A DNA stretch of 64,000 bases from Felis catus. Its lineage: Eukaryota. The first letter of the stretch is position 1. Every line of letters begins with the position of its first letter. Of the stretch, positions 20,901 to 23,056 are shown in pieces. The notes beneath the pieces are model-generated. The model did no database searches, was not told where the DNA came from, and saw only the letters and a program-made list of their open reading frames with translations. The position numbers and the translations under genes were made by a program. Where the stretch lies: assembly GCF_018350175.1 (NCBI RefSeq), contig NC_058373.1:62558001-62622000 (forward strand). The letters run 5' to 3'.

Positions 20901-23056
20901 TGCCCACAAAGCAAAGATTAAAATGGTTCTTTTTGAGACTCTTAAAAACTGAGAACAAACTGAGGGCTGATGGGGGGTGGGAGGGAGGGGAGGGTGGATG
21001 ATGGGTATTGAGGAGGGCACCTTTTGGGATGAGCACTGGGTGTTGTATGGAAACCAATTTGACGATAAACTTCATATGTTGAAAAAAAATGGTTCTTTTT
21101 GAAGTCTCTTAAGTACGCATGTTTTTATTTATTTATATTTATTTTTTAAAGTAGGCTCCATGCCCAATGTGGGGCTTGAACTCAGAACTGAGCTCAAGAG
21201 TCACATGCTTTACCAAGTAAGCCAGCCAGGTGTCCCAGGTCTTTGTCTGAAGTAAAAGGTAATCCTGGGGGAACATCCTATTTCAGGTATGAAGTTCTAC
21301 ACGGTAACAAATATATCCCATGAGAAAGGGTCTTAATAGTAAACTGATCAAAATTAACACTCTTCGTTGACTGGAAGCAGATCCAAATAATCCGTACTTG
21401 CTAGAACCTAAGGGCTGCATTGTAGGAAAAATTTAGCAGGATTTAACAAAGACTGTCTTCTTGAAACGAGAGGCGCTAAGGAGGAGAACTGGGTGGCTGG
21501 TGTCACGGAAGGGAGACTCGTTCTGCACCGCAGATTGTTTTCTAACTTTGGATTTTTAACATGTGTATGTTACCTAGTTGGAAAACTAAAACTTAGAAAC
21601 GAGTCGATGCCCCAAATCAAAACAATCGCCTTAAAACGTTAAACTGTTTCAGTCATATATGATCATAAAGCTGGGACAGGGACAGAAAACTGAGATGAAA
21701 ACTCCCAACTTGTCTAGGGAGAGCCCGTCATTTTCCACCCAAGGGTGGTCACTGTTCTCCAAGGGAAAGGCAGGGTAAAGGGGCCAGGCTCCAGCTCCCC
21801 CAGAGACTCCTAGTCCTGCTGAAGCCAGATTACCATTTAGGTGTTCTGAGGCCACATGAGACCAACAAAAACAACCTTTAAGCCTTTGGAGACAAGCCTG
21901 TTTACCTCACAGATCAATCCTGTTACTCTTCACCCACCAGTGGCAGTCTCCTGGAAAGGAGTCTTAATAAAGCTGTTTCCAAATCTCTCACAACAGGTTC
22001 TGATGTTTGAAGTCTATTATATGCTACGCTCTCCAGATTACGCAGCTGGACAACTGCAGATTGTAGGAGATGACTTCCAACCACAAGCCCAGTAACACAA
22101 AGCAGGATGTCAAAGGAATCAAAAATTGTTTTTAATCCTACCTCTTCTCCCGAGGTTGTGGAAAACTCCAGCTAGGCCTGGCCCCTCTCTCTCATTTCAC
22201 CCAACAAACACTGAGAACATGCTACATAAGAGACACTGTGCAGTTACAAATGTGAACTAGACGTGGGTGAACCCCAGGGCCTCTCTGTAAGAATCAGACT
22301 CTCCTCTCTTCTCCCAGGTAATCGGGTACAGCCAGATAGCCCAACTCTGGAAACAAAACGAGCAATTGCTTAACAAGAGATTCCTAGCTTGAGGAAATAA
22401 TATTGTGGAACAATCAGCAATTTAGCCAGGTTTCGGGGGAGTTAGCAGGTTGTCAGAGCCAATGGAATGCCCTTCCCCTTTCCAGGCCGCCGATCTAAGC
22501 CCTCATACTCCTAGGCTAGGCCTCCTCCGCGAGTCCGCAGGGCGGCGTTGATACCCACCTGCCGGCAGGCCGCCGCTCTGCACAGCGGGGGGCTGCAGGG
22601 TGTACACTGTCTTAACCACGCTGGTCATCGTAACGAGGCGGCAAGGCTGGGCCCTGGAAGGTGCGAATCGAATGTTAGCCTGCGGTGGGCCAGGGGGCCC
22701 AAGAAGGTGGAAGGCCCCGGGAGAGGGCGACCTGGCCTGTCCGGGCCCGGGGAAGAAGTCGGGAGAAAGAAAATTCTCCATTCCCAGTCCATCCATCCCG
22801 CCCGCCTCCGACATCCAGCCCCGTCTCTCGCCCCGGGACAACCGAACCCAGGCGCCTGTAGCTCCTACTCGCAGCCCTCGTCGCTCTGATTCAAAAGCTG
22901 CTCCGCAGTAACTGCCGCACCAGCAACCCGGTCTGCCGCCTGGCTTTCAAATGGAAACTTCCGGTGGCCGGGCGGGAGGGCGTGCGGTGTGCTCCCTGTA
23001 GGCGGCCATGTTGTACGTCTATTTGTGCCCTGGGCCACGCCTCTGGGGGCTGCCAT
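11945..23056 (-). CDS. KNSTRN: Small kinetochore-associated protein SKAP (kinastrin), 9 exons; short isoform from ATG 22628 is intact (238 aa); long-isoform exon 1 has an in-frame TAG
   Basis: Exons: e1 23056 to 22848 (or 22869), e2 22559-22653, e3 19317-19446 (includes SKSLLP EB-binding-type motif), e4 18527-18574, e5 17022-17127, e6 16711-16804, e7 13654-13715, e8 12800-12874, e9 11945-12076 (ends EMEQLLEM*). All GT-AG with consistent phases. Confidence 0.95.
14638..14765. other. Assembly gap (128 N)
   Basis: N run inside the HNRNPA1 retrocopy. Confidence 1.
14867..15072. other. Assembly gap (206 N)
   Basis: N run inside the HNRNPA1 retrocopy. Confidence 1.
15691..16555 (+). mobile_element. 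Three plus-strand SINEs (15691-15917, 16041-16270, 16428-16555) in KNSTRN intron 6
   Basis: Each has a ggggcacctgg/ggtgcctgg head and A tail. Confidence 0.85.
17490..17985 (-). mobile_element. Three stacked minus-strand SINEs in KNSTRN intron 4
   Basis: Repeated reverse heads (gagccacccagg) and T-rich tails. Confidence 0.85.
20090..20346 (-). mobile_element. SINEC
   Basis: T tail, (GA)n and reverse head. Confidence 0.88.
20936..21088 (+). mobile_element. Very short L1 3' end with TSD
   Basis: L1 3'UTR terminus; TSD aaaatggttctttttga on both sides. Confidence 0.85.

Follow-up and report, generated by a model that had tools for sequence, protein, structure and literature searches.

The locus studied here raises the question of whether cats have lost the long isoform of SKAP, the product of KNSTRN, or keep it by splicing, since exon 1 of the domestic-cat gene carries an in-frame TAG whose first base also makes a GT splice donor. 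In human, somatic SKAP transcripts are described as starting inside exon 1, the first ATG being present only in testis transcripts (Kern et al., PMC4862331), and long SKAP is reported in elongating spermatids (PMC4862331, PMC4738695). The mouse long form has a 78-aa extension, and the knockout described in the same work removes both isoforms (Grey et al., PMC4738695). The window is a stretch of 64,000 nt of Felis catus DNA, to which all positions refer.

The gene in the window is domestic-cat KNSTRN (SKAP), on the minus strand, and a genome search showed the locus to be single-copy in Felis catus. The coding part of exon 1 runs from ATG 23056 through 63 open codons to a TAG at 22867-22865 and then through five codons to a donor after 22848. 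The 63-aa peptide from ATG 23056 matches part of the Felis catus RefSeq SKAP protein P0001 at 100% identity, and a nine-exon chain with AG/GT boundaries recovers the whole of P0001 without a mismatch, provided that the donor is that at 22869. ATG 23056 together with this donor gives 309 aa, of which three residues differ from lynx P0022; with the donor at 22848 the frame ends at codon 64, and the last coding junction lies 627 nt further downstream. ATG 22628 opens an intact short isoform of 238 aa, identical to P0037, and the exact recovery of P0001 and P0037 from the exon chain identifies the gene as the KNSTRN/SKAP orthologue. The initial annotation had named the gene, given it a 209-nt exon 1 and an exon 2 starting at 22653, placed the in-frame TAG after ATG 23056, joined the 22869 donor to exon 2 in phase 2 for a 309-aa protein seven residues shorter, and taken the short isoform from ATG 22628 as intact; the minus-strand reading and the exon chain agree on each of these points. 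A Pfam scan with a local copy assigned no family to any of the four proteins submitted, and PF28427 is precomputed on database matches. The features, all on the minus strand, are:

23057..23233, minus strand: open upstream extension of 59 codons, used by 11 of 14 felid RefSeq species and out of frame in camel and bovids
22869..23056, minus strand: coding part of exon 1, 188 nt long, between the conserved ATG of the long isoform and the felid (upstream) donor; it reproduces P0001
22865..22867, minus strand: in-frame TAG, codon 64, supported by the sequence and by the proteins of relatives
22861..22871, minus strand: upstream 5' splice site, with its GT at 22868-22867 overlapping the stop; weak by U1 pairing
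22848..22868, minus strand: inter-donor segment of 21 nt, seven codons including the stop, exonic or intronic according to donor choice
22840..22850, minus strand: ancestral (downstream) 5' splice site, after 22848, intact and equally weak by U1 pairing
22654..22847, minus strand: intron 1, phase 2, 194 nt from the ancestral donor and 215 nt from the upstream donor
22559..22653, minus strand: exon 2 from the exon chain, holding the short (mitotic) isoform ATG 22628
within 11945..19446, minus strand: exons 3-9 from the exon chain, all intact
19446-19317, 18574-18527, 17127-17022, minus strand: exons 3-5
16804-16711, 13715-13654, 12874-12800, 12076-11945, minus strand: exons 6-9

The reality of the stop was examined in public reads and in the proteins of related cats. 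All 60 sampled 31-mers of 22560-23160 are contained in 14 public runs at the level of word sharing; setting aside four runs marked as a possible source leaves ten, from eight samples, five studies and two species labels, and the T has a probability of 0.03 of lying outside all 60 words. Runs with small word shares (X18-X20) were left out as evidence. Three unspliced felid ORFs (P0002, P0032 and P0034) terminate exactly one residue before the stop, P0002 agreeing at all of 122 aa with the proteins of leopard and jaguar, and the lion model P0041, from a second annotation pipeline, skips exactly the stop codon 64. An exact 23-base pattern had no match in JGI metagenomes, and a protein search for relatives of 34-111 aa found none. 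An assembly error or private variant is thus argued against by the word shares in five independent studies, as well as by three independent ORFs ending at the same residue and the codon skip in the lion model, and we hold it to be extremely improbable; the CAG in reads that the initial annotation had allowed for finds no support.

The first letter of the TAG is also the T of the GT donor at 22868-22867, 21 nt upstream of the ancestral donor. Among the 18 possible single-base stop gains in this exon, five yield an in-frame GT, and a TAG preceded by G always makes a phase-2 GT; because intron 1 is of phase 2, the coincidence of stop and donor is only partly above chance. Donor strength was measured as pairing energy with the genome's own U1 5' end, a crude scale that is neither MaxEntScan nor SpliceAI. 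On this scale the two donors of exon 1 are equally weak, at -4.2 kcal/mol each, and the seven other KNSTRN donors reach -8.6 to -13.3 kcal/mol. The exon-1 donors are joint third among the 18 GT sites of 23300-22654 and the best two in the right phase. Position -1 of the upstream donor is A, and replacing T by C at +2 leaves the site without stable in-register U1 pairing (0 kcal/mol). Use of the 22869 donor deletes 21 nt, which is 7 of 316 codons, in frame and below 10% of the coding sequence. In the predicted fold of the cheetah protein, residues 37-164 have pLDDT below 50 and the seven lost residues fall within a stretch of pLDDT about 30; they stand behind the best conserved motifs of the extension.

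We then compared the gene models of felids with those of other mammals, the felid lists being the clusters of P0001, P0003 and P0004 (12, 8 and 11 members), which may not hold every annotated isoform. Models lacking the seven residues, and therefore using the 22869 donor, are present in all 14 felid species listed (16 entries), among them a second cat model, P0031, although such evidence consists of computed gene models that may be carried over between related cats. Conversely, a donor of the 22869 type is used in none of 60 non-felid long entries, which cover hyenas, dogs, foxes, mustelids, bears, fur seal, bats, camelids and bovids. In 54 of the 60, 78 residues (209 coding nt) precede the second start, the other six keep intron 1 sequence, and in none are there 71. 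These counts reject 22869 as the ancestral donor, a possibility against which the initial annotation had asked its own reading to be checked. The presence of deleted models in 14 of 14 felid species favours rescue over loss. Within cats, 22869 is unused in two models of the second pipeline, lynx P0040, which starts in intron 1, and lion P0041.

The TAG is not fixed in Felidae. Codon 64, where the Gln state was read from protein sequence, is Gln in cheetah and Geoffroy's cat as in hyenas, dogs, bears, bats and bovids, and it is Tyr in the models of clouded leopard; an unspliced ORF with a Geoffroy's cat marker residue (P0033) has Gln here and continues into intron 1. Full-length models are lacking for lynxes, jaguarundi, Prionailurus, tiger and snow leopard, which suggests that these cats have the stop. 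The three open-codon species have deleted models (P0028, P0004, P0039/P0048) and also full-length ones (P0023/P0029, P0026/P0030/P0047, P0036/P0044), which indicates that the old donor is probably still used and the rescue partial. RefSeq isoforms with the short protein only are found for cat, jaguarundi and leopard cat and for none of the three open-codon species, as expected if, in the presence of the TAG, transcripts from the ancestral donor are taken for short-only ones.

Codons 1-63 are open in the models of 14 of 14 felid species and in four unspliced ORFs, with no further stop or frameshift. Felids show 14 changes in the 63 extension codons vs. 11 in the 238 codons of the short protein, and caniforms 52 vs. 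55, so that the rate ratio of extension to short protein is similar in the two groups, 4.8 in felids and 3.6 in caniforms (Fisher p = 0.66, with little power). Between cat and the Leopardus-like ORF, 3 of 63 codons differ in the extension and 2 of about 73 in the intron; the extension moves at about the pace of the intron, which gives no sign of purifying selection on it.

The search for RNA junctions covered four runs, one single-cell raw run (about 1 in 100 reads taken) and three contig sets. Over 22644-23300 these showed no intron-1 junction at either donor; there was no loose end, the stop was uncovered, and three of the runs gave nothing. One RNA contig of 244 nt, from another organism, covers 23011-23254, upstream of both donors, and bears a base change giving the non-domestic Lys5; it is too thin to show transcription. 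Use of the 22869 donor in cats is accordingly a modelled event, favoured by the gene models of all 14 felid species.

The reading that we consider probable is a partial rescue, in which two weak donors compete and spermatids keep some long SKAP minus seven residues. The competition would take place in all cats. Transcripts starting upstream of ATG 23056 and spliced at 22869 would encode the 309-aa protein, and those spliced at 22848 would keep the TAG and give the 63-aa peptide, nonsense-mediated decay or reinitiation at ATG 22628, according to the established rules of decay and reinitiation. Somatic transcripts, presumed to start inside exon 1 as in human, would hold the TAG in their leader, where because of this position it would be harmless, so that the allele could spread as a mild, germline-only reduction of long SKAP. 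A partial rescue is favoured by the deleted models even where there is no stop to avoid, as a gene finder would there have no reason of frame to invent them. The initial annotation had set loss of the long isoform against its rescue: rescue is the favoured side, and the either/or itself is probably too sharp, since the three open-codon species have models for each of the donors, which suggests that the two compete.

Two other readings place the balance between the donors elsewhere. The long isoform could be effectively lost in most cats, with the GT hardly used and the deleted models being gene-finder solutions or carry-overs; the weak donor with its A at -1, the lack of a junction in the four runs over 22644-23300 and an extension evolving at about the rate of the intron would all fit, as would the avoidance of 22869 by the second pipeline (the codon skip of lion P0041 and the intron 1 start of lynx P0040) and a mouse knockout phenotype attributed mainly to the short isoform (PMC4738695). 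However, deleted models also exist in three open-frame species, the second cat model P0031 uses 22869, codons 1-63 have no further stop or frameshift in 14 species, and an open codon 64 in three lineages would be odd for long-dead sequence. We therefore regard loss as unlikely. At the other extreme, the upstream donor could dominate, the TAG would in effect be intronic, and Gln and Tyr would reflect neutral drift, introgression or GT>GC bias. This is the less credible of the two, because the ancestral donor is intact with the same U1 score and is modelled in all three open species, and because short-only isoforms occur in stop species; a full switch would nonetheless agree with the deleted models in 14 of 14 felids, with the reported gene flow between nearly all cat clades (PMC6759079) and with GT>GC donor conversions outnumbering GC>GT by 298 to 40 in primates and rodents (PMC2490688).

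The states of codon 64 require at least four changes on the cat tree, whose shape was taken from general knowledge. At the first base, three changes are needed on each of the 15 arrangements of the four Felinae lineages, and clouded leopard adds one third-base change, most simply from stop to Tyr. One early gain with two reversions is as short as two gains with one reversion. Most simply, a single C>T change would have occurred early in cats, and the codon would later have been reopened, by reversion to Gln in the lineages of cheetah and ocelot and by a change from stop to Tyr in clouded leopard. A different history, equally compatible with partial rescue, would give early cats a minor GC donor at this site and have C>T occur more than once, in Pantherinae and in the lynx-puma-cat ancestor, strengthening the donor each time. 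We consider this history doubtful, if somewhat less so than loss of the isoform. It is as parsimonious at the first base (three changes on all 15 arrangements), and although none of the 60 non-felid entries uses the site, cheetah and Geoffroy's cat, both with Gln, have deleted models. These models reflect either real use of a GC donor, which argues against C>T having created the donor, or carry-over, which makes the models less trustworthy; the upstream donor possibly works or once worked as a GC donor that C>T strengthened rather than created. Intrinsically weak GC donors are reported to be used efficiently with enhancers (PMC3167603). On the other hand, the C state has no U1 pairing, none of the six hyena entries uses the site despite the shared Glu-Gln context, and one reversion (cheetah) plus the Tyr change would still be required.

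It is tempting to see in this distribution a toggle between stop and donor under recurring selection, in which, after the ancestral C>T, only transcripts spliced at the new donor would have yielded long SKAP, and the codon would have been opened again independently in three lineages (to Gln in cheetah and in the ocelot lineage, to Tyr in clouded leopard) as the dose of long SKAP in spermatids matters. At the mean rate of the exon the Poisson chance of three further changes at one codon is about 0.002, a figure for a codon chosen post hoc with uneven rates, and one that leaves room for introgression and GT>GC bias. Gene flow and this bias could produce part of the codon 64 pattern without selection, and we think a selected toggle improbable.

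The arrangement resembles manufactured splice rescue, whose predicted frequency is about 1 in 175 human nonsense variants and whose index case, as cited in that work, is BUD13 p.Arg230* (Haque et al., PMC10853237): there too, one base makes a stop together with a donor at or just upstream of it, and splicing at this donor deletes a short in-frame segment with the stop, the outcome being a hypomorph. Cat KNSTRN shows a single-base in-frame stop, a GT donor made by the same base and a deletion below 10% of the coding sequence, and since these three defining features are present it likely belongs to this class. Its membership is incomplete. The class also calls for a new donor that is used in RNA, with a SpliceAI donor gain of at least 0.2, and for a shortened protein that is made and works; on these points cat KNSTRN offers a donor seen in none of the 60 non-felid entries but modelled in two Gln species, gene models in 14 of 14 felids beside no junction in four runs, the U1 pairing energies, and a deletion in a predicted disordered stretch. 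The described cases are rare human alleles, more often TAA or TGA, whereas the TAG is common to species across the cat family; moreover, unlike those cases, the cat exon is coding only in the germline isoform, the old donor is intact and three lineages are open.

Other known systems share parts of this picture. The long and short SKAP described previously come from the same gene with two start codons, the short isoform being intact in cats as well (PMC4862331, PMC4738695), but the known extension has 78 aa and that of cats 71 aa by the donor shift, or is cut off at 63 aa. As in the splice-site shifts handled by CESAR (PMC4914097) and TOGA, an apparent lesion near the exon end is bypassed by a shifted donor of the same phase; in cats, however, a single base is both lesion and new donor, and the old donor is kept. 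The +2 position is T or C among cat species, as in GT/GC donor conversion (PMC2490688), with the difference that in cats the same switch turns a stop codon on or off in the exon form that overlaps it. Among open-licence papers we found none on KNSTRN in cats or felids, and the word 'cat' is absent from the main text of PMC4862331. The shortened long protein is already known from public gene models; the new elements are the reading of a family-wide stop/donor allele, the germline-only exon and the three open lineages.

Cats may be informative on the eutherian, spermatid-specific long SKAP: some of the species have the allele that combines stop and donor, others an open codon, so that isoform dose would be readable from existing testis RNA-seq, and if a toggle under selection were true, they would form a natural allelic series for the function of long SKAP. 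The locus would also show, across a whole clade and over a long time, a rescue mechanism previously described in rare human variants, and would be a warning for gene-loss screens. The biological effect may be small, the short mitotic protein being untouched.

Several observations concern the surroundings of the exon. The 59-codon upstream extension is probably 5' leader; its reading as conserved coding sequence was rejected, because the upstream ATGs are in different frames in cat, camel and bovids. In its 59 codons (23233-23057) only four positions vary across 11 felid species, whereas the next 63 codons have 14 changes; the coding extension is thus less conserved than this presumed leader/promoter. 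From an out-of-frame ATG at 23190, a frame of 99 codons extends across the main ATG; in the ORFs of camel and bovids the corresponding ATG is in frame. Retention of intron 1 (22847-22654) is common in the assembled contigs of other mammals (P0010, P0012, P0016, P0080-P0082, P0110-P0112), which may be RNA or DNA, and fits a weak conserved donor; bear-like ORFs that retain intron 1 continue in frame into exon 2.

Between exons 6 and 7 lies, at 13971-13900 on the minus strand, an open in-frame cassette exon of 72 nt bounded by AG/GT, which appears in models of cat, jaguarundi, Geoffroy's cat, clouded leopard, lion, tiger and leopard cat and in none of the non-felid entries fetched. It is possibly felid-specific and would be inserted in the linker between two predicted coiled-coil helices. 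Farther along the window, a GC-rich stretch at 33015-36338 (minus strand) holds an open frame of 1107 codons, which by gene order is likely the large last exon of DISP2. Positions 1-80 (loci L006-L007) hold the start of isovaleryl-CoA dehydrogenase (IVD), on the same strand and about 12 kb downstream of KNSTRN, and in databases some entries from dog and camel merge the two genes or label them wrongly.
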